A stretch of DNA of 64,000 nucleotides from Bacteroidales bacterium UBA4181 (GTDB taxonomy: Bacteria > Bacteroidota > Bacteroidia > Bacteroidales > UBA4181). The translations under genes were made by a program, and so were the position numbers. The stretch covers positions 2,890 to 66,889 of the forward strand of contig DFUR01000048.1 of assembly GCA_002380425.1 (NCBI GenBank), read 5' to 3'. Under the pieces are notes generated by a model. That model was not told the origin of the DNA. It saw only the letters and a list, made by a program, of their open reading frames with translations, and did no database searches. This document shows, piece after piece, positions 2 through 15,317 of the stretch (position 1 is the first letter of the stretch; the number at the start of each line of letters is the position of its first letter).

Positions 2-3000
2 AACCGCTCATATCTTACTGAAGCAATACAGTTGATGGGCAATGTCCGTTCCCGGTTGACCTTGTTGTCCCGGTTGGACAGTGTGCTGCGCCCTGGGTCT
101 ATGGACCTGATGCTTTTCCGTAGTTTTCTGGAAACCAGAGGGCTCGAAACCGGTTATGGGGTGCGGGATGTTCAGGTGGGTCAGTGGATCAAACTGGCCG
201 ATATGCAGCCCGAGGAGATGTCTGCAGTGCAGAATTTGTCCAGGCAGGCTCATAGTAAAGCGTCCCTGTTGATGGCCCAGTGGCAGGCAGTATCCAATGG
301 AACGTCAGTGGATGATCTGAAAGCTCTGGATAAAGATTTAGAAGAGTTTGTGGCTCTTGCAGCTTCGTTTGGCCGACAGGTGATGGATATGAGTGACTGG
401 ATTCACAGGAAACTCCTGGTGGTATTTTCGGTTTTTGTGGTCATGCTGGTGCTGGGTCTCACCGTGATGCTTTTGTATTTGGTCCGCTCAGTGAGTTTGA
501 AGCGACAGGAGCAGAGGGAGCAATGGATCTTTCAGGGGCTTAGCGAACTGGACAACCATATCCGGGGCAATCATTCCCCTCAGGAGATTTCTGACCGCAT
601 CATTCGCACCCTTAACCGTGTTTTGGGTGTTTCTATGAGTTCATTGTATGTCTGTGATCAGGAGCTACGCAAACTGAAGCTTTCTTCTGCCAGTGGCCTG
701 AAGATGGATGAGTTGCAAAAAGAGCTGAGTTTGGGAGAAGGTTTTTCCGGTCAGGCGGCCTTGCAGGAGGGCCTGCAAATCATGGAAACTGGGGGGGCTT
801 ATCATAAGTTCTACGGTGCCACCGGGGAGATTATCCCGGAATTTGTTTACCTGCTGCCACTCCGGTATAACGAGGAGCTTCAGGGAGTGGTGGAACTCGC
901 CTGCGGAAGGGAACTGGACGCCAAGAGCCGGCGTTTCCTGGAGCAGAGTGCCGACCGTCTGGCTGTAGCTTTGAGCTCTGCTCTGATGGTGGCTCGCAAT
1001 AGCGAATTGTTGTTGAAAAACAAGGAACAGGCCGAGGCCATACAGCAGCAGCAGGAGTTGAATCAAAGTATGCATGCGACACTGATTCGACAGAAAGCGC
1101 TGCTTGACTCTATGCTCCGGACTCTGCCGGACAATATCTACTTCAAGGATCTGGAAAGCCGTTTCTTGCGCATCAGCGATTCCATGGTTCGTTTCTTTGG
1201 AGTCAAGAGTGCTGAGGATGTGATCGGGAAATCGGACTTTGACTTCAAATCGCCCGAGAAAGCCCGTAAGTACTTCGAAGAGGAACAGACCATTATTCGT
1301 ACCGGAAAGGGTTTCTATGATGAAATTGTCCAGCAGACCGACAGCGAAGGCAATGAGGTGTGGTCCTCTATCTCCAAACTTCCTTTGTACGATGAAACCG
1401 GCCAGTGTATCGGGACATTCGGGATTTCCAAGAATATAACCAACTTTAAGAAGCTCGAGCAGTCTGTGAGGGAACAGAATGAGCAGCTTCTGGCACAGCA
1501 GAAGGAACTGCAGACAACCATATCCGGGATGGTTCAGGCTCAGGAGGCTCTGAAGTCCCAGATGGCTGAAAATGCTGAGATGCATCAGCTTCTGGAATGG
1601 GAGAAATCATTGATGGACGCCCTGCTGGGAAATGTGCCTGACCTGATTTACTTCAAGGACTCTCAGAGCCGTTTTGTGAAGGTCAGCGCTTCTATGGCCA
1701 GACGTTTCGGGTTGGAAGACCCTGCTGAGTTGGTCGGGAAGACAGACTTCGATATTCAGGATGCCGAGCATGCCCGGCAGGCATTCGAGGATGAACAGAC
1801 CATCATGAGGACCAGGACTCCTGTGGTGGGACTCGTTGAAAAGGAAAAGTCCGGTGATGAGGATCACTATGTATTGACCACCAAGATGCCCTTGCTCGAT
1901 CACGAGGGCAAGGTGTTGGGTACATTTGGTATCTCCAAGGACATCACGGAGTTGAAGAACCTGGAGATGGAGGTTACCCGTCAGAATGAGGAATTGATGG
2001 TGCAACAGGAAGAACTCCGGGTTACCAATGATGAACTCAATGCTCAGCAGGAAGAACTCAAGGCTGCCAATGAGGAGTTGCAATCTCAGGAGGAGGAATT
2101 GCGTGTCACCAACGAAGAACTTGAGGAGCGGGGCAAGGAATTGGAGATGGAGCGGAAGGAGGTGGAGCACAAGAATAAGGAACTTGTGAGGGCTCAGAAT
2201 GAATTGTTGCAAAAGGCCCGCGATTTGGAGCAGGCCAGCCGCTACAAGTCCGATTTCCTTGCCAATATGTCCCATGAGCTTCGTACACCCCTGAATAGTT
2301 TGCTCATTCTCTCCAAGATCCTCGCTTCCAACAAAGCGGGGAATCTAACCCCTGACCAGGTCAAGTCGGCTTCCATTATTTACAACAGCGGCAAGGATTT
2401 GCTTGAGCTTATCAACGAGGTTTTGGATCTGTCCAAGATCGAAGCCGGAAAGATGACCATTGAACTTGCTGAGACAGAGATAAGCGGAATCGCCGGTGAA
2501 TTGCTACAGTTGTTCCGCCCGGTTGCTGAGGAGAAGAAGCTTCAGTACCTTGTGGAACAGGAGAAGGACTGTCCGGAACAGATTGTTACCGACCGTCAGC
2601 GTTTGATGCAGATTGTCCGTAATCTGCTCTCCAATGCCTTCAAGTTCACTGCCAGCGGTAGTGTGGTTGTCCGTTTGGGGCTGGCTCCGCAAGGGTTCCG
2701 GTGGAGGAACTCTGACGTTGATCCCGGGCCGTTGCTGAGAATCTCTGTGCAAGACTCCGGTGTGGGTATTCCTCAGGCAAAACTGTCTGCGATTTTTGAG
2801 GCCTTTCAGCAGGCAGATGGGAGCATCTCCCGTCGCTTTGGCGGAACCGGTCTGGGACTGTCAATTTCCCGCCAGCTGGTGCGTATGCTTGGGGGAGAGA
2901 TTCATGTGGAGAGTGCGGAGGGGACCGGTTCTTTGTTCACTATTTATCTTCCGCTGACACAGACGGGTTCGGCTCCGGAAGTGGCTGCTCCCGTCCTCAC

Positions 3001-4261
3001 GGCTCCTGCCCAGAAAACACCTGAGATGGCCGTTCGGGTTGTGCAAGAGGTGCCTGAACATCCGGAAACCTCCAAACTTCCCTTCCTGATTGAGGATGAC
3101 CGGGATATGGACACAGCAGCCCCCATGATATTAATTATCCACGCAGACAAAGTTAAAGCCCGGAAAATACTCAAATTGTCCCGCAAGAGGGGATTTCATG
3201 GGGTAGTCTCCGGGGATATTGCCGGAGGTGTCCGTTTGGCAGAGGCTTTCCGGCCCAAGGCTATTATTCTTGCGGCCGAACTGAATTCTTTGTCTGAGGC
3301 GGCGCAATTGCGCCAGAGCAAATGGACCGCAAAACTCCCGGTGCACATCGTTTCTGTTGTTGAAGAGGGAATGTTCGACCAATTGGGTGAATCGGTCCCT
3401 CAGGAATCGAAGGAGTCGCATCACCCTGTCTCCATTACCAGCCGGGTGACTGATGGAAACAATATTCTGCTGGTTGAAGATGATTCAGCTACCCGTCAGA
3501 CGGTCAGGATGCTGCTTGAAGAAAAAGAGGTGCAGATTACGGAGGCGGTTACCGCCAATCAGGCATACGGGTTGTTGAAAACCCAGACTTTTGACTGTGT
3601 TATTTTGGATCTGGGGCTGCCCGATTATTCAGGCAAGGAATTGCTGGAGAAACTCAAGGCTGAAAAGATCGTGGTGCCGAATGTGATTATCCATACGGCT
3701 CGTGAACTCTCTGAGAAGGAATTCCGGGAGCTTCAGAAATTGTCCAGTTCCATCGTTGTCAAGGGGCTCAAGTCGGATGAGCGTCTGATGGATGAAGTTA
3801 CCCTGTTCTTGCATCATCTCTCGAGGGAAATTCCCGGTGTTCAGGAACCCAGGGAGGTTGTCCCCGCTGACTCAGGGGGTTTTAAAGGCAAGAAGGTGCT
3901 GATTGTGGATGACGACATCCGCAATATCTTTGCTTTGGCACAGGTGCTTGAAGAAAACGGAGTGGAGATCATGGAAGCCGAGAATGGACAGGTTGCGATT
4001 GACCTTTTGGAACAGAACCCGGACATAGACTTGATCCTGATGGATCTGATGATGCCCGAGATGGACGGATTCCAGGCAATGAAGGTGATCCGTGCTATGG
4101 ATGCGTTCAAGGATATCCCGATTATAACGGTTTCGGCCAAGGCCATGAAGGAAGACCACCTGAAAGCACTTGAGGTCGGGGCCAACGATTATATCTCCAA
4201 GCCTGTGGATGATGGAAAGCTTTTGTCCCTGTTGAAAATCTGGCTTAACAAGAAACGCTGA
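2..4261 (+). CDS. Multi-domain hybrid sensor histidine kinase (TM, GAF-like, 2x PAS, EEL coiled coil, HisKA, HATPase, pseudo-REC, 2x REC); probably 5'-truncated by the window edge
   Basis: The frame is open from nt 2 with no stop before the first ATG at 32. The first ~136 aa contain no TM1, so the N-terminus likely lies upstream. Visible elements: TM helix LLVVFSVFVVMLVLGLTVMLLYLV; tandem PAS units (PDNIYFKDLESRF... and PDLIYFKDSQSRF...); H-box MSHELRTPLNS (His codon 2273-2275); ATPase boxes DSGVGI and GGTGLGLSI; receivers with VILDLGLPD and ILMDLMMPEMDG. Confidence 0.9.
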   Translation, partial: NRSYLTEAIQLMGNVRSRLTLLSRLDSVLRPGSMDLMLFRSFLETRGLETGYGVRDVQVGQWIKLADMQPEEMSAVQNLSRQAHSKASLLMAQWQAVSNGTSVDDLKALDKDLEEFVALAASFGRQVMDMSDWIHRKLLVVFSVFVVMLVLGLTVMLLYLVRSVSLKRQEQREQWIFQGLSELDNHIRGNHSPQEISDRIIRTLNRVLGVSMSSLYVCDQELRKLKLSSASGLKMDELQKELSLGEGFSGQAALQEGLQIMETGGAYHKFYGATGEIIPEFVYLLPLRYNEELQGVVELACGRELDAKSRRFLEQSADRLAVALSSALMVARNSELLLKNKEQAEAIQQQQELNQSMHATLIRQKALLDSMLRTLPDNIYFKDLESRFLRISDSMVRFFGVKSAEDVIGKSDFDFKSPEKARKYFEEEQTIIRTGKGFYDEIVQQTDSEGNEVWSSISKLPLYDETGQCIGTFGISKNITNFKKLEQSVREQNEQLLAQQKELQTTISGMVQAQEALKSQMAENAEMHQLLEWEKSLMDALLGNVPDLIYFKDSQSRFVKVSASMARRFGLEDPAELVGKTDFDIQDAEHARQAFEDEQTIMRTRTPVVGLVEKEKSGDEDHYVLTTKMPLLDHEGKVLGTFGISKDITELKNLEMEVTRQNEELMVQQEELRVTNDELNAQQEELKAANEELQSQEEELRVTNEELEERGKELEMERKEVEHKNKELVRAQNELLQKARDLEQASRYKSDFLANMSHELRTPLNSLLILSKILASNKAGNLTPDQVKSASIIYNSGKDLLELINEVLDLSKIEAGKMTIELAETEISGIAGELLQLFRPVAEEKKLQYLVEQEKDCPEQIVTDRQRLMQIVRNLLSNAFKFTASGSVVVRLGLAPQGFRWRNSDVDPGPLLRISVQDSGVGIPQAKLSAIFEAFQQADGSISRRFGGTGLGLSISRQLVRMLGGEIHVESAEGTGSLFTIYLPLTQTGSAPEVAAPVLTAPAQKTPEMAVRVVQEVPEHPETSKLPFLIEDDRDMDTAAPMILIIHADKVKARKILKLSRKRGFHGVVSGDIAGGVRLAEAFRPKAIILAAELNSLSEAAQLRQSKWTAKLPVHIVSVVEEGMFDQLGESVPQESKESHHPVSITSRVTDGNNILLVEDDSATRQTVRMLLEEKEVQITEAVTANQAYGLLKTQTFDCVILDLGLPDYSGKELLEKLKAEKIVVPNVIIHTARELSEKEFRELQKLSSSIVVKGLKSDERLMDEVTLFLHHLSREIPGVQEPREVVPADSGGFKGKKVLIVDDDIRNIFALAQVLEENGVEIMEAENGQVAIDLLEQNPDIDLILMDLMMPEMDGFQAMKVIRAMDAFKDIPIITVSAKAMKEDHLKALEVGANDYISKPVDDGKLLSLLKIWLNKKR
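1975..2235 (+). repeat. In-frame heptad repeat coding for an EEL-type coiled coil (xxxQ/N-E-E-L x ~8) just upstream of the kinase H-box
   Basis: Translation reads NEELMVQ QEELRVT NDELNAQ QEELKAA NEELQSQ EEELRVT NEELEER GKELEME RKEV, with Leu at every 7th residue. Confidence 0.85.
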
Positions 4262-5853
4262 TGGAGCGTCCCAAAATATTGATTGTGGATGACCTGGTCC
4301 AGAACCTGGTTAGTCTTGAGTTATTGCTGGCCGATTTTGACGTGCAATTTGACCGGGCGACCAGCGGAGCCGAAGCCTTGCGAAAGACCCTCAAAGAGGA
4401 ATATGCTATGGCCATTATGGATGTGCAAATGCCGGGCATGGATGGCTATGAGACCCTGACTCTGATGCGTCAGCGCCACAAAACGCGCTTTTTGCCGGTT
4501 ATCTTTGTGTCAGCGATCTACCAGAGTGATGTGTATATCATCAAGGGGATTGAGACCGGGGCGGTGGATTTTATCCCCAAGCCAATTATTCCTGAGATAC
4601 TTATTGGCAAGGTCCGGGTTTTTCTGGACTTGCATCGTCAAAAGCAGGAATTGAAGGACCTGCTCGAGAAACTCGAACACAATAACGAAGAGCTGGAGGT
4701 TCAGAGAAAGAAGGCTGAGGAGGCTACCCGGGCCAAAGCTATGTTCCTGGCCAATATGTCGCATGAGATTCGTACTCCGCTCAATGGAATTATTGGCATT
4801 TCCAAAATTCTGGAAAAGTCGGAACTGCCCTCGGATCAAAAGGACCTCATCCAGATCATTACCAACTCCGGGATGAATCTGCTCAACATTATCAACGACC
4901 TGCTGGATTTCACCAAGATTGAGGCTGGTCAGATAGAGTTGGAAAGTATTGAATTTGATATGGTTGAGGTTGTACACAATGTGGTTGGTTTGTTCCGTAA
5001 TCTGGCAGAAGAAAAGGGGTTGCGACTGGGCTCTTTGCTGGATTCCAAGATTCCCAGGGTACTTCGGGGCGATCCCCTCCGTTTAAGCCAGATTCTCAAC
5101 AACCTTACCAATAATGCCATTAAGTTCACCGAAAAGGGAGAAGTGTGCATATCTGCCGAGCTGGTCTCCAGAACAGAGCATGAGGCTGCTGTTTTGATCA
5201 AGGTCACCGATACCGGCATCGGAATTCCTCCTGAGAGCATTGGAAAATTGTTCCGGGATTTTTCTCAGGCCGATGCATCTACTACCCGAAGGTACGGAGG
5301 AACGGGCTTGGGGCTGGCCATATGCAAAAACCTGGCAACCCTTATGGGTGGACAGATTGGAGTGGACAGCCAGCCTGGAGCAGGGTCCAGTTTCTGGGTG
5401 CGCCTGAACCTCCAGGTGCATCAGGGGAATGCCGATGCCGGCTCGGTCGGGGAGCGTTCGGTTCCTGATTCGTTCCGGATCCTCTTTGCAGAAGACAATC
5501 TGATCAACCAAAAGATTACCCTGATGTTGCTCAAGCAAATGGGCTTGCGCTGTGATGTGGTGTTGAATGGTGAGCTGGCAGTCGAGGCTCACTTAAAAAA
5601 ACCTTATGATTTGATCCTGATGGATATGCAAATGCCCGTTATGGATGGAATGGATGCTGCACGAAGGATCCGGGAGGACGAGAACGCCCGAAACGAAAAG
5701 GCGCCGGTGTATATTGCCGCCGTTACCGCGAATGCTTTTGTTGAGGACAAACAATCATGCTTGGATGCCGGGATGGACGAGTTTTTGGTCAAACCGTTTA
5801 AAGAGTCGGATTTAAGAACTGTAATTCAGAATGCCCTCAGAAGAAAAAAATAA
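4261..5853 (+). CDS. Hybrid histidine kinase / response regulator (REC, coiled coil, HisKA, HATPase, REC)
   Basis: N-terminal receiver (ILIVDD...[11 protein letters not shown]), H-box [11 protein letters not shown], ATPase boxes DTGIGI and [10 protein letters not shown]-terminal receiver ([12 protein letters not shown]). The start overlaps the upstream stop by 1 nt (TGATG). Confidence 0.9.
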
Positions 5854-6712
5854 GAAAAATCAGGAGGATTCCGGTGGATCCAGCGCCGATATCCAGTCCA
5901 TCGAGATGAGACTGCTGCTCGAAGCGGTCTTTCTGAGGTATGGCTATGACTTCAGGAACTATTCCAAGTCGCACCTTCGTCGCAGAATTGTGCATCATCT
6001 GGGAATGAATTCCCTCTCTTCGGTGTCTGAACTGCAGGCAAAGATTATGTGGGACCGTTCGGCTTTTAACCGGCTGATGACTGACTTGTCTATCAATGTG
6101 ACCGAGATGTTTCGCGACCCGGAATTCTATCAGGCTTTCAGGACACAGGTCATTCCCATGCTGTCCACCTATGCCCATATCAAAATCTGGCATGCCGGTT
6201 GTTCTACTGGTGAGGAGGTGTATTCTCTGGCCATTTTACTCAAAGAGGCAGGCCTCCTTGGACGTGCTCAGATCTATGCCACTGACTTTAACAAATACGT
6301 TCTGGAGGTCGCCAGAGAAGGCATTTACAGACAGCAGGAGATAGAACTTTATGAACAGAACTATCTAAAGGCCGGAGGCCAGGGGAAGCTTTCGGATTAC
6401 TATACCTCCCGATACGGATCCGTAATCTTCGATAAATCGCTGACAAAAAAAGTGGTGTTTGTGGATCATAATCTGGCTACTGATGGCGTTTTTGCTGAAG
6501 TCAATGTCATTGTCTGCCGGAATGTGCTAATCTATTTTGACCGGATACTCCAGAGCCGGGTGATTGACTTGTTTTACCACAGCCTGCCGGGTATGGGGGT
6601 TTTGTGTCTCGGGACCCGTGAAAGTCTTCGTTTCTCCGAGTGGGAGAGCAGTTTTGCCGTGATGGACCCTGTGAATAAAATTTTCAAGAAAGACCCAACC
6701 CTTGCTCCATGA
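5831..6712 (+). CDS. cheR: CheR-type protein-glutamate O-methyltransferase
   Basis: SAM-binding motif IWHAGCSTGEEVYSLAILL, CheR N-terminal helical segment, CRNVLIYF motif. It overlaps the upstream ORF by 23 nt. Confidence 0.88.
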   Translation: MPSEEKNKKNQEDSGGSSADIQSIEMRLLLEAVFLRYGYDFRNYSKSHLRRRIVHHLGMNSLSSVSELQAKIMWDRSAFNRLMTDLSINVTEMFRDPEFYQAFRTQVIPMLSTYAHIKIWHAGCSTGEEVYSLAILLKEAGLLGRAQIYATDFNKYVLEVAREGIYRQQEIELYEQNYLKAGGQGKLSDYYTSRYGSVIFDKSLTKKVVFVDHNLATDGVFAEVNVIVCRNVLIYFDRILQSRVIDLFYHSLPGMGVLCLGTRESLRFSEWESSFAVMDPVNKIFKKDPTLAP

Positions 6713-7272
6713 TTCGCGCTATCGTCATCGGCGCATCCTTCGGGGGTATTGAGGCCATCCGCGAGATTTTATTGCATCTTACCCCGGAGGTACGGGTACC
6801 TGTGTTTGTTGTTTTGCACATCGGGAACAACCGGATTGACGGGTTTGTGAACTTTCTCAACAACCATACCCACTTCTTGGTTTCGGATGCCTGTGATAAA
6901 GACGAGGTCCTCCCGGGTCATGTATATTTTGCTCCGCCCAACTATCATCTTATGATAGAAGACGATCAAACGCTGACCCTCTCGGTAGATGCCAAGATTA
7001 ATTTTTCCAGGCCCTCTATAGATGTGCTTTTCGAATCGGCCGCCTGGGTGTATGGTCGTGATCTGCTGGGAATTCTGCTTACGGGTTCCAATGCTGACGG
7101 TGCGCACGGGATGACGGTCATCAAGCAATGCGGGGGAACGACCATTGTCGAAGACCCCCGAACGGCCACTTCGGGGGTGATGCCCATGGCTGCCATTGAA
7201 AGGACTATTCCCGACCTGATTTTGCCATTGCGGGAGATTGCCCCCAGGGTGTGCTCTATTCTGGGTTGCTGA
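6709..7272 (+). CDS. cheB: CheB-type protein-glutamate methylesterase, catalytic domain only (no receiver domain)
   Basis: Catalytic-triad contexts are present: GASFGG (Ser), VLHIG (His), LTGSNADGAHG (Asp). It is only 187 aa. ATGA overlap with cheR. Confidence 0.85.
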   Translation: MIRAIVIGASFGGIEAIREILLHLTPEVRVPVFVVLHIGNNRIDGFVNFLNNHTHFLVSDACDKDEVLPGHVYFAPPNYHLMIEDDQTLTLSVDAKINFSRPSIDVLFESAAWVYGRDLLGILLTGSNADGAHGMTVIKQCGGTTIVEDPRTATSGVMPMAAIERTIPDLILPLREIAPRVCSILGC

Positions 7273-9514: not shown

Positions 9515-10222
9515 ATGGCAGAATATAAGAGAGTGTTGCTCAAACTGAGCGGTGAGGCTCTGATGGGTGGTAAGTCTTATGGTATTGATGAACAGCGTCT
9601 TATGGAATATGCCCGGGAGATTGGGGCAGCGACCAGGCTGGGCGTGTCGATAGGGATTGTATTTGGAGGCGGAAATATTTTTCGTGGTTTGAACGGAGTG
9701 GATAAGGGTTTCGACCGGGTGCGCGGAGACTACATGGGCATGCTTGCCACGGTGATCAACGGGCTGGCGATTCAGTCGGCCTTACAAAGTATCGGTGTGC
9801 CATCACGCTTGTTCACCGCGTTTTGCATGCAGCCCGTAGGTGAGGTTTTTTCCCGTGACCGGGTGCTGGAGTCGCTTCACCATGGAGAGGTGGCCATATT
9901 CAGCGGAGGTACCGGGAATCCCTACTTCACCACCGATACTGCCTCAGCATTGAGGGCCGTTGAAATGGATGCTGATGTTCTGCTAAAGGGAACGCGGGTG
10001 GATGGGGTGTATTCGGCCGATCCCGAAAAGGATCCTTCGGCGGTCAAGTATGCTTCACTCTCATTTGACCGGGCTTACGAGGAGAACCTCAAAATTATGG
10101 ACCTCACTGCATTCACACTTTGTAGGGAAAATCAAATGCCGATTATTGTCTTCGATATGAACAAGCCTGGAGAGCTGGTTCGGGTCCTTTCAGGAGAACC
10201 TGTCGGAACCATCATCAGATGA
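9515..10222 (+). CDS. pyrH: UMP kinase
   Basis: YKRVLLKLSGEAL...GGGNIFRG...TTDTAAALRA-like motifs. The track's TTG start at 9491 is replaced by the in-frame ATG at 9515. Confidence 0.93.
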   Translation: MAEYKRVLLKLSGEALMGGKSYGIDEQRLMEYAREIGAATRLGVSIGIVFGGGNIFRGLNGVDKGFDRVRGDYMGMLATVINGLAIQSALQSIGVPSRLFTAFCMQPVGEVFSRDRVLESLHHGEVAIFSGGTGNPYFTTDTASALRAVEMDADVLLKGTRVDGVYSADPEKDPSAVKYASLSFDRAYEENLKIMDLTAFTLCRENQMPIIVFDMNKPGELVRVLSGEPVGTIIR

Positions 10223-13092
10223 CCCGCCTGTTGCCTATACTCTGGTTTTTCGGGTTCCTCTGGTTCCTGCCCGGACTCTTCCTGTTCCCTTTGGTCGCGG
10301 CAGATGCCCCGCAAGTTACCCGGTTGTCCGACGGGGTTCAGATCCGTTTTTCCGGCAAAGACAAGCCGATGACATGGCTGCGGTTCCGGTTGATTTCCGA
10401 CCGGGTCGTACGGGTGAGTGCAACCATGAATGATGCTCTGGATCTTCAGGAACGTCTTATTGCACAGCCTCATTCTGACCCTCCACCCCGATTCCGGGTC
10501 AGGACGGTTCCCGGAGTGTTTGTTTCTCTCTCGACATCCCAAATGCAAGTGCAGGCTTCTCTGATAACCGGCGAGGTAAGATTTCTTGATGATAAGGGGG
10601 TGCCGATCCTTTCAGAGCGCGATGGGGGTGGTAAGACTTTTCAGCCGGTCACGGTGGACGGAGTGCATGCTTTCACCCTGCGGCAGGAGTTTGATTCTCC
10701 GGGCCGGGAGGCTATTTATGGTCTTGGCCAGCATCAGGCCCACCGCATGAACTACAAGGGAGCGCGTGAGGACCTGTTTCAATACAATACCAAGGTGTCT
10801 GTCCCATTCGTGGTTTCTACCCTCAATTACGGTTTGCTATGGGACAATTATTCGCTCTCGCGTTTTGGCGATCCCCGTCCCTTTGAACCATTATCCAGGC
10901 TTAAGTTGTTCGACGATCAGGGCAATCCGGGGGCTCTGACGGCTTCCTATTATGGTGGAGACGGAACTCTGATTACGCAACGCCGGGAATCCGGGATAGA
11001 GTACACTGATTTGGAATCGGTGAAAACCTTGCCCGACCGTGTGCCTCTTGCCAGGGCGCGGGTTACCTGGACGGGATGGGTGGAGGCTCCTGAGGAGGGC
11101 TTGCATCGCTTTCAGCTATATTATGCCGGGTATGCCCGGGTTCAGTTGGGTGGGGAATGGATGATGGAAGAGCGTTGGAGAACGGCCTGGAATCCTTCGG
11201 TGTGCACTTTTGAGAAAACGCTGTGTCCTGGGGAACGAGTTCCCGTTCGCATCGAATGGCGGCCTGACGGGGGGGGCTCCTACCTGGGGCTCAGCGTGTT
11301 AACCCCTATCCCGGAGGAGGACCGCCAACGGCTTTCGTTTTGGTCTGAGATGGGCGACCAGATTGACTACTATTTTATCCGGGGCAACTCAATGGATGAG
11401 GTTATTGCAGGTTACCGTCAGGTGACGGGCCAGGCGGTGCAGCTCCCGGCTTGGGCCTTTGGATACTGGCAGAGCCGGGAACGCTACAAGAGTGCCGACG
11501 AGTTGCTCCAGGTGGTCCGGACTTTCAGAGAACGGAGCATTCCTTTGGACAACATTGTTCTGGACTGGTTCTATTGGAAAGAGGACCAATGGGGAAGTCA
11601 TGAGTTTGACCCGGAACGCTTTCCCGATCCTGAAGGAATGGTGCGCAGCCTTCATGACGATTACCACACCCGCATCATGATTTCGGTGTGGCCCAAGTAT
11701 TACGTTGGTACAGAGCATTTTGAGGAATTTGACAGTAAGGGTTGGATGTATCGGCAGGCCATCCGCGATCAGGTCCGGGACTGGGTGGGCCGTGGTTATG
11801 TGGGCTCCTTTTACGATGCGTACCGTCCCGAAGCCCGGAAATTGTTCTGGTCCCAGCTCAGTGAACACCTTTATCCCAAGGGTTTCGATGCGTGGTGGCT
11901 GGATGCAACCGAGCCGGACATTCTCTCCAACGCATCTGTTGCGTATCGCAAGGTCTTAATGAATCCCACGGCACTTGGGCCTTCCACACAGTATTTCAAT
12001 GCCTACGCCCTGATGAATGCACGGGGAATATACGAGGGGCAGCGAACCCTGAATCCGGATAAGCGGGTGTTTATCCTCACCCGGTCGGGTTTTGCCGGCC
12101 TGCAAAACGCTGCAGCAGCCACCTGGAGCGGCGATATCGCCACCCGCTGGGAAGATATGAGGGCTCAGATTACAGCTGGGCTGAACTTCTCGATGTCTGG
12201 ATTACCTTACTGGACGATGGACATTGGCGGTTTCTCCGTGGAAAAGCGGTTTGAACAGGCCTTGGAGGGCTCTTCGGACATGGAGGAGTGGCGAGAGTTG
12301 AACGTGCGGTGGTTTCAGTTCGGGGCTTTCTGTCCCTTGTTCAGGGCGCACGGGCAGACTCCGTTCCGGGAGCCCTTTAATCTGTTTCCGGAGGGCCATC
12401 CCGGATACAGCGCAGTTACTGATGTCATCCGGATGCGTTATGCTTTGATGCCCTATATCTATTCGCTTTCCGGGGCGGTGTGGAAGAACGGTTACACGCT
12501 GATGCGTGGGTTGGCCATGGATTATCCCGATGACCCGCGGGTGTACGACCTTCCGGACCAATTCATGTTTGGGCCCTTTCTGATGGTGTGTCCGGTGACT
12601 GAATATAAGGCGCGTAACCGGGCCGTGTATTTTCCAGGAAGTGTGGGCTGGTACGATGTGTATAGCGGGCAATTTGTGCCGGGGGGTGACTCTGTACAAG
12701 TGCCTGCGCCTCTCGACAAAATGCCGTTGTTTGCCCGCTCTGGTGCTATTTTGCCCATGGGCCCGGAGATACAATACACTCAGGAAAAATCTGCAGACAC
12801 GCTTACTCTGTTTGTGTACACGGGTAAGGACGGAGATTTCGTTCTTTATGAGGACGATGGCCTGACTTATCAGTATGAGCAGGGAGCTTACTCGACCATA
12901 CCGATTCATTGGAATGACCGCCGGGCTATGCTAACCTTGGGCAAACGTCAGGGGAGTTTCCCCGGAATGCCGGAACGCAGGGTCTTTCGTGTGGTTCGGG
13001 TATCCCCCGCAGTTCCTGCCGCCTTTTCCAGACATACTCCCGTTGTCCGCCAGGTAGTGTACGAAGGGAGACGAATCACCTTGCATCTTTGA
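10219..13092 (+). CDS. Secreted GH31 glycoside hydrolase with a PA14-like insert (alpha-xylosidase/alpha-glucosidase type)
   Basis: Signal peptide. PA14-like block (TASYYGGDG...GLHRFQLYYAGYARVQLGG). GH31-type core (DAWWLDATEP, WSGDI, FRAHG). ATGA overlap with pyrH. Confidence 0.8.
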   Translation: MTRLLPILWFFGFLWFLPGLFLFPLVAADAPQVTRLSDGVQIRFSGKDKPMTWLRFRLISDRVVRVSATMNDALDLQERLIAQPHSDPPPRFRVRTVPGVFVSLSTSQMQVQASLITGEVRFLDDKGVPILSERDGGGKTFQPVTVDGVHAFTLRQEFDSPGREAIYGLGQHQAHRMNYKGAREDLFQYNTKVSVPFVVSTLNYGLLWDNYSLSRFGDPRPFEPLSRLKLFDDQGNPGALTASYYGGDGTLITQRRESGIEYTDLESVKTLPDRVPLARARVTWTGWVEAPEEGLHRFQLYYAGYARVQLGGEWMMEERWRTAWNPSVCTFEKTLCPGERVPVRIEWRPDGGGSYLGLSVLTPIPEEDRQRLSFWSEMGDQIDYYFIRGNSMDEVIAGYRQVTGQAVQLPAWAFGYWQSRERYKSADELLQVVRTFRERSIPLDNIVLDWFYWKEDQWGSHEFDPERFPDPEGMVRSLHDDYHTRIMISVWPKYYVGTEHFEEFDSKGWMYRQAIRDQVRDWVGRGYVGSFYDAYRPEARKLFWSQLSEHLYPKGFDAWWLDATEPDILSNASVAYRKVLMNPTALGPSTQYFNAYALMNARGIYEGQRTLNPDKRVFILTRSGFAGLQNAAAATWSGDIATRWEDMRAQITAGLNFSMSGLPYWTMDIGGFSVEKRFEQALEGSSDMEEWRELNVRWFQFGAFCPLFRAHGQTPFREPFNLFPEGHPGYSAVTDVIRMRYALMPYIYSLSGAVWKNGYTLMRGLAMDYPDDPRVYDLPDQFMFGPFLMVCPVTEYKARNRAVYFPGSVGWYDVYSGQFVPGGDSVQVPAPLDKMPLFARSGAILPMGPEIQYTQEKSADTLTLFVYTGKDGDFVLYEDDGLTYQYEQGAYSTIPIHWNDRRAMLTLGKRQGSFPGMPERRVFRVVRVSPAVPAAFSRHTPVVRQVVYEGRRITLHL

Positions 13093-13124
13093 AGACTTAA
13101 TGATACATTACACCAACAACGCTC

Positions 13125-15317
13125 ATGATTATGACTTCTGTTCTGAAACACCTGCTTTGTACCGGGTTGCTCCTGGTGCTGCTCCTGCTCCCTTCTCTCG
13201 CTCAGCCTCTTTCGTCGGGCGAGGAAGAGAAACTCATTAAAAGCTACTTGTCTCAAATGACTCTTGCCGAGAAGGTGGGTATGTTGCATGGAAACTCAAA
13301 GTTTACATCCACCGGGGTACCCAGACTGAACATCCCGGAGTGGCATCTTTCGGATGGTCCTCATGGAATTCGTGAAGAAATTCAACGGGATTCCTGGAAC
13401 CCCGCCGGATGGACGGATGATGCTTCTACCTGTTTTCCTACGGCAACGGCCCTGGCAGCAACCTGGAATCCTGCTCTTGCGCAACTCGAAGGAGAGGCTC
13501 TTGGGGAGGAAGCCCGGCACCGCAAGAAAGATGTGCTTCTTGGACCCGGAGTGAATATTCTGCGTACCCCTCTCGGTGGCCGTGGGTTTGAGTATCTCAG
13601 TGAAGATCCTTATTTGACATCTGTGATGGCTGTTGCATGGATTAAGGCTGTTCAAAGCCGGGATGTGGCCGTGAGCGTGAAGCATTTTCTCGCCAATAAT
13701 CAGGAGCATGAGCGTAACAGGGTGGATGTGACCATGAGTGAGCGTGCTTTGCGTGAGATTTACCTGCCAGCCTTCCGAGCCGCAGTGATGGAGGGCGGAG
13801 CCCTGACCGTGATGGGCGCCTACAACAAGTTCCGTGGGGTATGGTGTTGCGAGAATCCTTTTCTGGGACGTACACTACTGCGGAATGAGTTCGGATTCCA
13901 GGGCGTTTATTTGTCGGACTGGGGCGGGGTACACACCACGGTTGAGTCAGCCTTGGCGGGTCTGGACCTGGAAATGGGGACCAATGGCGCCTACAATAGC
14001 TATTTCTTTGCCGATCCATTGTTGCTGGCGGTCACCCAGGGCAAGGTTCCTGAGTCGGTGGTGAATGAGAAAGTTTCGAACATTCTCAGGGTGATGCTTC
14101 GCACGAAGGTGATAGGCCCGGAAGTTGATAAGCGGTTCCCGGGATCATTCAATACTCCGGAGCATCAGGCGGCAGCCTACAAGGTGGCCTCCGAATCGGT
14201 GGTGTTGCTGCGCAATGCAGGAGGTTTGCTCCCGCTAAATTTTTCCAAACTACGTTCCGTTGCAGTGATTGGCAGGAACGCCACCCACAAGCAGGCAGCC
14301 GGCGGCCAGAGCTCGGGTATTAAGGCCCTTTATGAGGTTACCCCGCTGGAAGCAATGCAAAAGAAGTGGGGAAGCCGGGTTCGTATTGATTATGTGCTGG
14401 GCTATGACAAACCTGAGCCGGTGGTCGAGAACGGACGCCGTCGGCCCGCAAATGATCTGGTGGCCAACCAAAAATTGCTCCAGGAAGCCGTTGAAACTGC
14501 CCGGAAGGCTGATGCCGTCATCTTTGTCGGGGGGCTTGATCATGACTATGATACCGAAGGCTCGGACAAACCTCATATGGAGCTTCCCTACGGTCAGGTT
14601 GAGGTCATTCAGGAGATCAGTAAGGTGAATCCAAATGTTGTGGTGGTCATCGTTGGCGGCTCTCCTGTAGATATGAACGGTATCGTGCACCGGGTCCCGG
14701 CTTTGGTGTGGGCGTGGTTCAACGGAATGGAAGCCGGGAATGCCCTTGCCGATGTTCTGGATGGCAAAGTGAATCCATCAGGTAAACTGCCCTTTACCCT
14801 GCCTTCATCGCTTAGCCAGTCGCCTGCCCATGCTCTGGGTAATTATCCCGGGAAGAATCTCAAGGTACATTACGAAGAAGATATCTTTGTGGGCTACCGC
14901 TGGTTTGACACCAAACAGATCCAGCCGCTGTTTCCATTTGGATTTGGGCTCTCCTACACAGATTTTGTGATTGATCAGCCCTCATTGAATAAGAAAGTCT
15001 ATGGTATGGCTGATCGGGTACAGGTGCAACTTACCGTACGCAATACAGGGAAGATTGCCGGTGCGGAGACTGTTCAGTTGTATGTGGGTGACCCCCAGGC
15101 TTCGGTGCCCCGGCCTCTGAAGGAGTTGAAGGCTTTTGCCAAAGTCTTCCTGCAGCCGGGAGAATCCCGCAAAATTACCCTCACGGTTCCGGTGGAACAT
15201 TGTGCCTTCTTTGAGGAAAAATCTGCAAAATGGGTGGTGGAACCCGGAGAATTTATGCTCTACGTGGGGAACTCTTCGCGGAACATTGTCCACGCCAAGT
15301 CATTCAATGTAAAATAA
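13125..15317 (+). CDS. Secreted GH3 beta-glucosidase (BglX-like) with a C-terminal Fn3-like domain
   Basis: Signal peptide plus GH3 motifs KHFLANNQE and GVYLSDWGG (nucleophile Asp context), and a C-terminal [10 protein letters not shown]...L.PGES beta-sandwich. Confidence 0.88.

Follow-up and report, generated by a model that had tools for sequence, protein, structure and literature searches.

Can the coiled coil of an ordinary histidine kinase serve as a substrate of CheR and CheB, the enzymes that modify chemoreceptors? This question is raised by the first genes of a 64,000-nt stretch of DNA from Bacteroidales bacterium UBA4181 (contig DFUR01000048.1, positions 2,890 to 66,889; hereafter the window), where a hybrid sensor histidine kinase, HK1, carries an array of Glu-Glu-Leu (EEL) heptads immediately upstream of its phospho-accepting His and shares an operon with cheR and cheB. 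The original prediction for this locus held that no methyl-accepting chemotaxis protein (MCP) is encoded nearby and that the coil itself may therefore be the substrate of the two enzymes. Our comparative tests, namely the linkage of coil and enzymes across loci, a hidden Markov model (HMM) of the coil and the absence of MCP and CheW from the genome, support this proposal, whereas its claim to novelty and its appeal to the MCP methylation consensus did not survive; the arrangement very probably belongs to the published methyl-accepting coiled-coil (MAC) class. Methyl transfer to the coil, the sites that would receive it and the sign of its effect on the kinase are what we infer from these comparisons, and we put the probability that the operon's CheR methylates the HK1 coil at about 0.7.

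A heptad coil in front of the phospho-accepting His

HK1 begins 218 nt upstream of the window, and open reading frame (ORF) reading on the flanking contig places the complete gene at L005:2672-7150. It heads an operon on the + strand with the order HK1, HK2, cheR and cheB, whose features lie at the following window coordinates:

2..4261, + strand: MAC-type hybrid sensor histidine kinase HK1 (frame +2; the 1419 C-terminal aa of a 1492-aa protein)
572..975, + strand: GAF domain of HK1 (window-protein residues 191-324; Pfam PF13185/PF01590)
1130..1957, + strand: two PAS domains of HK1 (residues 377-480 and 544-652; Pfam PF13426/PF08448)
1952..2251, + strand: heptad coiled coil of HK1, from the end of PAS2 into the DHp helix (residues about 651-748)
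2246..2959, + strand: HisKA (DHp) and HATPase_c core of HK1 (PF00512 residues 749-816; HATPase_c 864-986)
2273-2275, + strand: phospho-accepting His codon CAT (residue 758 of the window protein; H-box SHELRTP)
3125..4234, + strand: degenerate receiver-like segment and two REC domains of HK1 (starting at about residue 1042, and at 1154 and 1297 for the REC domains)
4261..5853, + strand: HK2, a REC-HisKA-HATPase-REC hybrid kinase of 530 aa (its start overlaps the HK1 stop codon)
5831..6712, + strand: CheR-type protein-glutamate O-methyltransferase (CheR_N and CheR S-adenosylmethionine (SAM)-binding domain; 23-nt overlap with the end of HK2)
6709..7272, + strand: CheB methylesterase/deamidase, catalytic domain only, 187 aa, without a receiver (ATGA overlap with cheR)

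From its N-terminus, HK1 comprises a periplasmic sensor flanked by two transmembrane (TM) helices, GAF, PAS, PAS, the coiled coil, HisKA, HATPase_c, the degenerate receiver and the two REC domains. By Pfam, a receptor-like coil and a HisKA/HATPase_c core, not a CheA, are combined in this one protein, as in the second type of MAC protein (MAC2, discussed below), and the Pfam scan found no PF00015 (MCPsignal) domain in HK1.

Upstream of the His, whose codon had been located exactly, [E/D][L/V/I/M] recurs at a period of seven residues through 14 successive heptads in a single register that runs into the H-box (VTRQNEE LMVQQEE LRVTNDE LNAQQEE LKAANEE LQSQEEE LRVTNEE, continuing with LEERGKE LEMERKE VEHKNKE LVRAQNE LLQKARD LEQASRY). 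By chance, such runs reached at most 5 heptads when the whole protein was shuffled 2000 times, and 4 in 20000 sequences shuffled to the composition of the coil itself, so the periodic coil is real. The repeat array had been described as about eight perfect heptads, a slightly generous count, since seven have the strict form (Q/N/E)-(E/D)-E-L; the start given for it, 1975, lies a trivial one base off a codon boundary. Residues -97 to -8 from the His include 26 acidic and 14 basic side chains. The register, with Asn/Gln at a, Glu-Glu at b and c and Leu at d, is an assignment that would fit a dimeric coiled coil, presumably a parallel dimer. Within the array, the motif QQEELRVTN(D/E)EL, which recurs throughout the wider family, occurs twice, at -90 and -62, with an extra QQEELKAANEEL unit in between and Glu at position -61 (QEEEL). 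The DNA of the coil holds only a weak 42-bp repeat (2.8 copies, 69% matches), and the periodicity is therefore maintained at the protein level. A recent tandem duplication of DNA was considered as its source and rejected, the 42-bp repeat being just 69% identical.

A Q/E-rich linker also joins the two PAS domains (window about 1460-1625; KKLEQSVREQNEQLLAQQKELQTTISGMVQAQEALKSQ...). It contains two degenerate heptads, QNEQL and QQKEL (compare QNEEL and QQEEL), which may be a remnant, or a second and weaker copy, of the coil motif.

The coil is conserved at a fixed distance from the His

A search with the coil and H-box returned at least 8000 matches, of which the best 120 were examined. These are hybrid kinases with HAMP, dCache, GAF or PAS sensors from Bacteroidota, Desulfobacterota, Vibrionaceae, Ferrimonas and Chlorobi. 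The coil module, 50-69% identical and ungapped up to the phospho-His, occurs in Bacteroidota, Desulfobacterota, Gammaproteobacteria, Bacillota, Nitrospirota, Spirochaetota and others, and is present in thousands of hybrid kinases of many phyla; CHASE3-HAMP-GAF proteins are among the coil homologues. In a His-anchored profile of 119 homologues, chosen, like the 80 loci analyzed below, by similarity to the motif, the shared element L-Q-x-Q-Q-E-E-L-R-V-T-N-E-E-L-E-E-R-T spans -65 to -47, with a second copy 28 residues upstream, and at least 118 members agree at each of Q-62, E-60, E-59, L-58, N-54, E-53, E-52 and L-51. Bacillota proteins found independently of this motif-chosen profile carry the same coil motif. 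Positions -61 and -89 toggle between Gln and Glu among the 119 homologues, a behavior also typical of chemoreceptor modification sites. The last EEL unit before the His keeps its position across lineages. In most family members the EEL heptads alternate with QTKAL/SEAEL heptads in a 2+2 arrangement, whereas in the HK1 lineage seven EEL-type heptads are contiguous.

The conserved family motif, QQEELRVTNEELEE, is unlike the MCP methylation consensus. One unit of HK1, NAQQEELKAA, had been singled out as a near fit to that consensus, and it does agree at three of the four small-residue positions; the resemblance is nevertheless an incidental, lineage-specific accident, since a full [ASTG][ASTG]xx[EQ][EQ]xx[ASTG][ASTG] site occurs within 125 residues before the His in none of 230 family members. 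The MCP consensus was accordingly rejected as the reason for the conservation of the coil. Recognition by this CheR would then have to differ from that by chemoreceptor CheR, which fits a separate classification of MAC-linked and chemotaxis CheR proteins (bioRxiv 10.1101/2022.05.07.491037).

The coil tracks cheR and cheB across loci and genomes

An alignment of 24 coil segments (A1) yielded at least 563 confirmed places in contigs representing one genome per species. For the top 80, retrieved together with 10 kb of flanking sequence, six-frame ORFs were scanned with the CheR and CheB of this genome, and counts were made on the 61 loci whose downstream flank reached 5.5 kb or more. In 55 of these 61, a cheR on the coil's strand begins the downstream enzyme genes at a distance of 2-4.5 kb, almost always with cheB following it; four loci have cheR without cheB. 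For the other six, a CheR is found elsewhere in the genome in every case.

A motif-independent test started from a 401-genome sample of the phylum, with CheR above the Pfam cut-off in 211 genomes and CheR-positive genomes picked first. A strong CheR match is present in 47 genomes of the window's class, this genome included, and MCPsignal is found in just three of them, being absent from 44. Among the CheR-positive relatives, the coil HMM matched 34 of 46 at E<=1e-5 as against two of 20 CheR-negative genomes (both weak matches in short frames); at E<=1e-10 the counts were 26/46 and 0/20. Several of the weaker matches lie about 600 nt after a CheR domain in one frame of 900-1800 aa, a fused layout resembling the first MAC type (MAC1). 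The predicted co-occurrence of EEL repeats with CheR and CheB is thus borne out both locus by locus and genome by genome.

Some arrangements depart from the common one. At four Bacteroidales loci (L069, L071, L079 and L083, about 10001-14000 in each), a pair of MAC kinase and HK2 stands without cheR or cheB within 10 kb, and CheR is encoded at another place in each genome; either several kinases share the enzymes in trans, or the coupling has disappeared from these copies. At three further loci, from Alphaproteobacteria, Rhodospirillaceae and an unclassified Proteobacteria metagenome-assembled genome (L034 8149-13736, L039 216-5053 and L066 11149-13709, respectively), a CheR domain lies C-terminally in the kinase's own frame (1674, 1412 and 658 aa) and CheB in an overlapping frame, which looks like a kinase-CheR fusion in the order opposite to MAC1. 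Across the phylum sample, CheR outnumbers MCPsignal about twofold (211 versus 111 of the 401 genomes). Family f25 (for example G011, G026 and G126; small genomes of 2-3 Mb) encodes CheR almost only in MAC1-like frames of about 1000 aa and, with the one exception of G354, no MCP signaling domain.

The enzymes of this genome and their partners

The source genome is a 107-contig draft of 2.66 Mb, 97.4% complete. Searches for MCPsignal and CheW found neither anywhere in it, and identical searches were positive in eight control genomes; the observation that no MCP is encoded near HK1 therefore extends to the whole assembly and to CheW. The genome encodes two CheR and two CheB in total, each adjoining or fused to a histidine kinase, in three separate CheR/CheB-kinase modules, and six of its 24 ORFs with an H-box lie within 10 kb of CheR or CheB. 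This makes the window a clean example of the arrangement.

Within the operon, the CheR retains the SAM-binding motif AGCSTGEE at residue 122, and in CheB, Ser10, His37 and Asp130 fall on the catalytic-triad region when aligned to solved CheB structures. With both motifs intact, the two enzymes look active, as far as sequence can indicate. The stop and start codons of neighboring genes do overlap, as the original prediction described, although it missed the gene that separates HK1 from cheR, namely HK2 at 4261-5853.

The second module (G000:C105:25798-29573, minus strand; CheR part L001) consists of a cheR of 280 aa overlapping a downstream TM-HAMP-GAF hybrid kinase of 980 aa. Ahead of its H-box, this kinase has a helix with five N-x-E-L heptads (ENQNHELEAQKNELSAQSRELSEQNTELMMQQRRL) that share the register of the HK1 coil relative to the His. 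No cheB is found nearby, and two more hybrid kinases and an NtrC-type activator follow. The third module (G000:C51:3336-5591; L003) is a 752-aa fusion of CheB esterase, PAS, HisKA, HATPase and REC; no CheR is encoded close to it, and the helix leading into its H-box is only short.

Relation to the MAC class and to other kinase-modifying systems

The MAC class was introduced by Wuichet & Zhulin in 2010 (Sci Signal 3:ra50, as described in bioRxiv 10.1101/2022.05.07.491037 and PMC6943060); MAC1 has CheB and CheR fused to the protein, and MAC2 has them as separate, associated proteins (bioRxiv 10.1101/2022.05.07.491037). MiST 3.0 has HMMs for both types (PMC6943060), and Pfam has no MAC model. As of 2022, MAC proteins were without any experimental characterization (bioRxiv 10.1101/2022.05.07.491037), and our literature search for later experimental work on MAC proteins found none beyond the RsbK/RsbM and cfc leads described below.

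The HK1 operon is, with high confidence, a MAC2 member. Like MAC2, it combines receptor and kinase in one protein with a conserved coil as the proposed methyl acceptor, and encodes CheB and CheR as separate neighboring genes, needing neither CheA nor CheW, in genomes without other chemotaxis systems; the window has unfused cheR and cheB genes and the acidic heptad motif shared by proteins linked to CheR and CheB. Nothing essential differs. The HK1 lineage has its seven EEL heptads contiguous instead of alternating with QTKAL/SEAEL, its sensor is GAF-PAS-PAS where common MAC2 proteins have HAMP-GAF or dCache-HAMP-GAF, and a REC-HK-REC kinase precedes cheR. The MAC1-like frames are related through the same coil motif, recognized by the same HMM, which in related genomes immediately follows the CheR domain within 900-1800-aa frames; they differ in that the enzymes of the window are separate and the coil is the kinase's own linker from input to DHp.

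An experimental precedent comes from Bacillus cereus, where RsbM, an orphan CheR-type methyltransferase without an esterase, is reported to methylate the signaling helix of RsbK and to repress sigma-B activation (Chen et al. 2012; PMC4574943). RsbK (WP_002197482.1) has the architecture CHASE3-HAMP-GAF-S-helix-HK-CA-REC (PMC4574943). Both systems thus pair a hybrid kinase, whose DHp is preceded by a helix, with an adjacent CheR-type methyltransferase, and in RsbK methylation controls the output. RsbM lacks a paired esterase, whereas the window operon has CheB, along with a GAF-PAS-PAS sensor; because CheB is present, the methyl mark should be reversible here. RsbK feeds RsbY and sigma-B, and its helix is likened to the HK1 coil by architecture and gene context, not by sequence. 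RsbK was not among the best 120 matches listed in a search from a Bacillota homologue (L080). If RsbK is methylated at Glu439 and Glu446, Glu446 would fall at -59 from His505, on the invariant second Glu of QQEEL, a correspondence that is given no weight here. RsbK/RsbM is matched more closely in layout by the cheR-kinase pair on contig C105, which has no cheB nearby, than by the window operon.

In Pseudomonas putida, the cfcABCDE genes encode a CHASE3/GAF hybrid kinase, CfcA (PP_3761), followed by a CheB/CheR pair without a role in chemotaxis (PMC4951495, PMC6849547). The H-box of CfcA, ANMSHEL, is identical to that of HK1 as judged from published primers, the link resting otherwise on architecture and gene context; CfcA differs in having a known output, the diguanylate cyclase CfcR. 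With MCPs, finally, HK1 shares a heptad-periodic coiled coil bearing Glu/Gln pairs and CheR and CheB as modifiers. Unlike them, it lacks an MCPsignal domain, a hairpin four-helix bundle and coupling through CheA and CheW, and the MCP site consensus is not conserved.

The original prediction supposed that methylation of a kinase coil had not been demonstrated experimentally. This has to be revised, since the MAC2 arrangement was published in 2010 and RsbM methylation of the RsbK helix has been reported. The window is an ordinary MAC2 example, and the idea drawn from it is a rediscovery of a published hypothesis, not a new one. Whether MAC proteins are methylated is a question dating from the 2010 proposal, to which the CheB-less RsbK/RsbM pair gives a partial answer.

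A proposed mechanism and its alternatives

A coil of roughly 100 residues connects the periplasmic sensor, the GAF and the two PAS domains of HK1 to the DHp His. In the proposed mechanism, CheR would use SAM to place methyl esters on exposed b and c glutamates of the QQEEL and TNEEL units, the likeliest targets being the invariant EE pairs around positions -59/-52 and -87/-80 relative to the His. CheB, which has no receiver, would strip these groups and may deamidate neighboring Gln. Neutralizing charge on a weakly packed, acidic and Asn/Gln-cored coil could alter its stability or register and thereby bias the on/off equilibrium of the adjoining DHp and kinase; in RsbK, methylation represses (PMC4574943). 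The outcome would be slow, reversible control of gain or adaptation in an ordinary HisKA kinase without MCP, CheA or CheW. Since this CheB lacks a receiver, any feedback would have to work through a state-dependent accessibility of the coil to the two enzymes.

A more ambitious version, which we hold to be possible but doubtful, takes the operon in MCP-free Bacteroidia as a self-contained adaptation circuit for a multikinase network. The seven-heptad EEL array, as a lineage-specific expansion of the 2+2 arrangement, would offer many graded methylation sites; CheB and CheR would receive feedback purely from coil conformation, with no phosphorylation of CheB by CheA; and HK2, with its REC-HK-REC layout, might read out or reset the gain set by methylation. 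Such a circuit would place chemotaxis-style memory on an ordinary two-component kinase, with feedback unlike that of either MCP/CheA or the irreversible-looking RsbK/RsbM system.

Several observations weigh against methylation of the coil. The MCP consensus is missing from all 230 family members, and the invariance of the motif is partly built in, because homologues and loci were selected on motif similarity. The 12 of 46 CheR-positive class genomes without a coil HMM match indicate that CheR has other partners too. In P. putida, other cfc mutants, CheB and CheR included, kept the CfcA-dependent phenotype, a statement given as unpublished data (PMC4951495, PMC6849547).

In one alternative explanation, the coil is only a structural linker of the S-helix type between PAS/GAF and DHp, conserved for mechanical reasons, and CheR and CheB act on another target, for example HK2, a receiver or an unlinked protein. 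Coiled-coil linkers before the DHp are general in histidine kinases, the E-R-T signature is a hallmark of S-helices, and the proximal coil carries a sequence like it (EERT in the family, EERG in HK1); a single EEL heptad in this register also precedes the H-box of HK2, and the missing MCP consensus (0/230) agrees with such a role. In a plain linker, however, one would expect neither 14 near-invariant residues over more than eight phyla nor such close tracking of cheR and cheB, and in MAC1-type fusions the motif is joined directly to CheR instead of linking a kinase. The S-helix is, moreover, itself the reported methylation target in B. cereus (PMC4574943), and we regard the purely structural explanation as unlikely. 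In a related proposal, the EEL array would be a docking rail that tethers CheR and CheB, with the relevant methylation limited to a site or two, located in the membrane-distal S-helix or on a partner kinase. The variation in EEL unit number between lineages (seven contiguous in HK1, 2+2 alternating in most) suits a rail, as do the fixed last unit before the His and the HK2-type kinases as conserved neighbors; in MCPs, the counterpart for docking would be the C-terminal pentapeptide of the receptor. Docking, itself a suggestion from sequence patterns, is compatible with methylation of the HK1 coil, the sites still lying in the same coil, and as a replacement for it we think it rather improbable.

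It would also have been conceivable that CheR and CheB are remnants or parts of a conventional chemotaxis system whose MCP, CheA and CheW fall into the unassembled 3% of the genome, their adjacency to kinases being incidental. The assembly is indeed a 107-contig draft at 97.4% completeness, but MCPsignal and CheW searches that succeeded in eight control genomes gave nothing here, MCPs are absent from 44 of the 47 CheR-positive class genomes, the gene order is kept in 55 of 61 loci from many phyla, and this CheB lacks the receiver, the very domain through which CheA normally controls CheB. We consider this explanation highly implausible.

Should the HK1 coil prove to be methylated, reversible covalent memory, a hallmark of chemotaxis receptors, would also tune ordinary HisKA kinases, and the principle would extend to thousands of bacteria, including non-motile and MCP-free lineages such as Bacteroidia. 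Culturable hosts of HK1 relatives include Vibrio, Desulfovibrio and Marinifilum, and probably P. putida for CfcA; Marinifilum flexuosum, Labilibaculum filiforme, Desulfovibrio mangrovi and Photobacterium chitinilyticum are culturable species among the homologue and locus matches.

HK2 and the end of the operon

HK2 is a conserved partner of the MAC kinase. Orthologues scoring above 500 bits separate the MAC kinase from cheR in about 20 related loci or, as at L009 and L015, follow just after cheB. In many other loci, a 680-aa relative of HK2 is encoded directly upstream of the MAC kinase. The EEL heptad before the H-box of HK2 itself is a single NNEELE unit in the family register.

The strand changes after cheB, and the operon therefore ends there. 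The two minus-strand ORFs that follow, of 130 and 157 aa, look by eye like a HIT-family protein and GreA, respectively.

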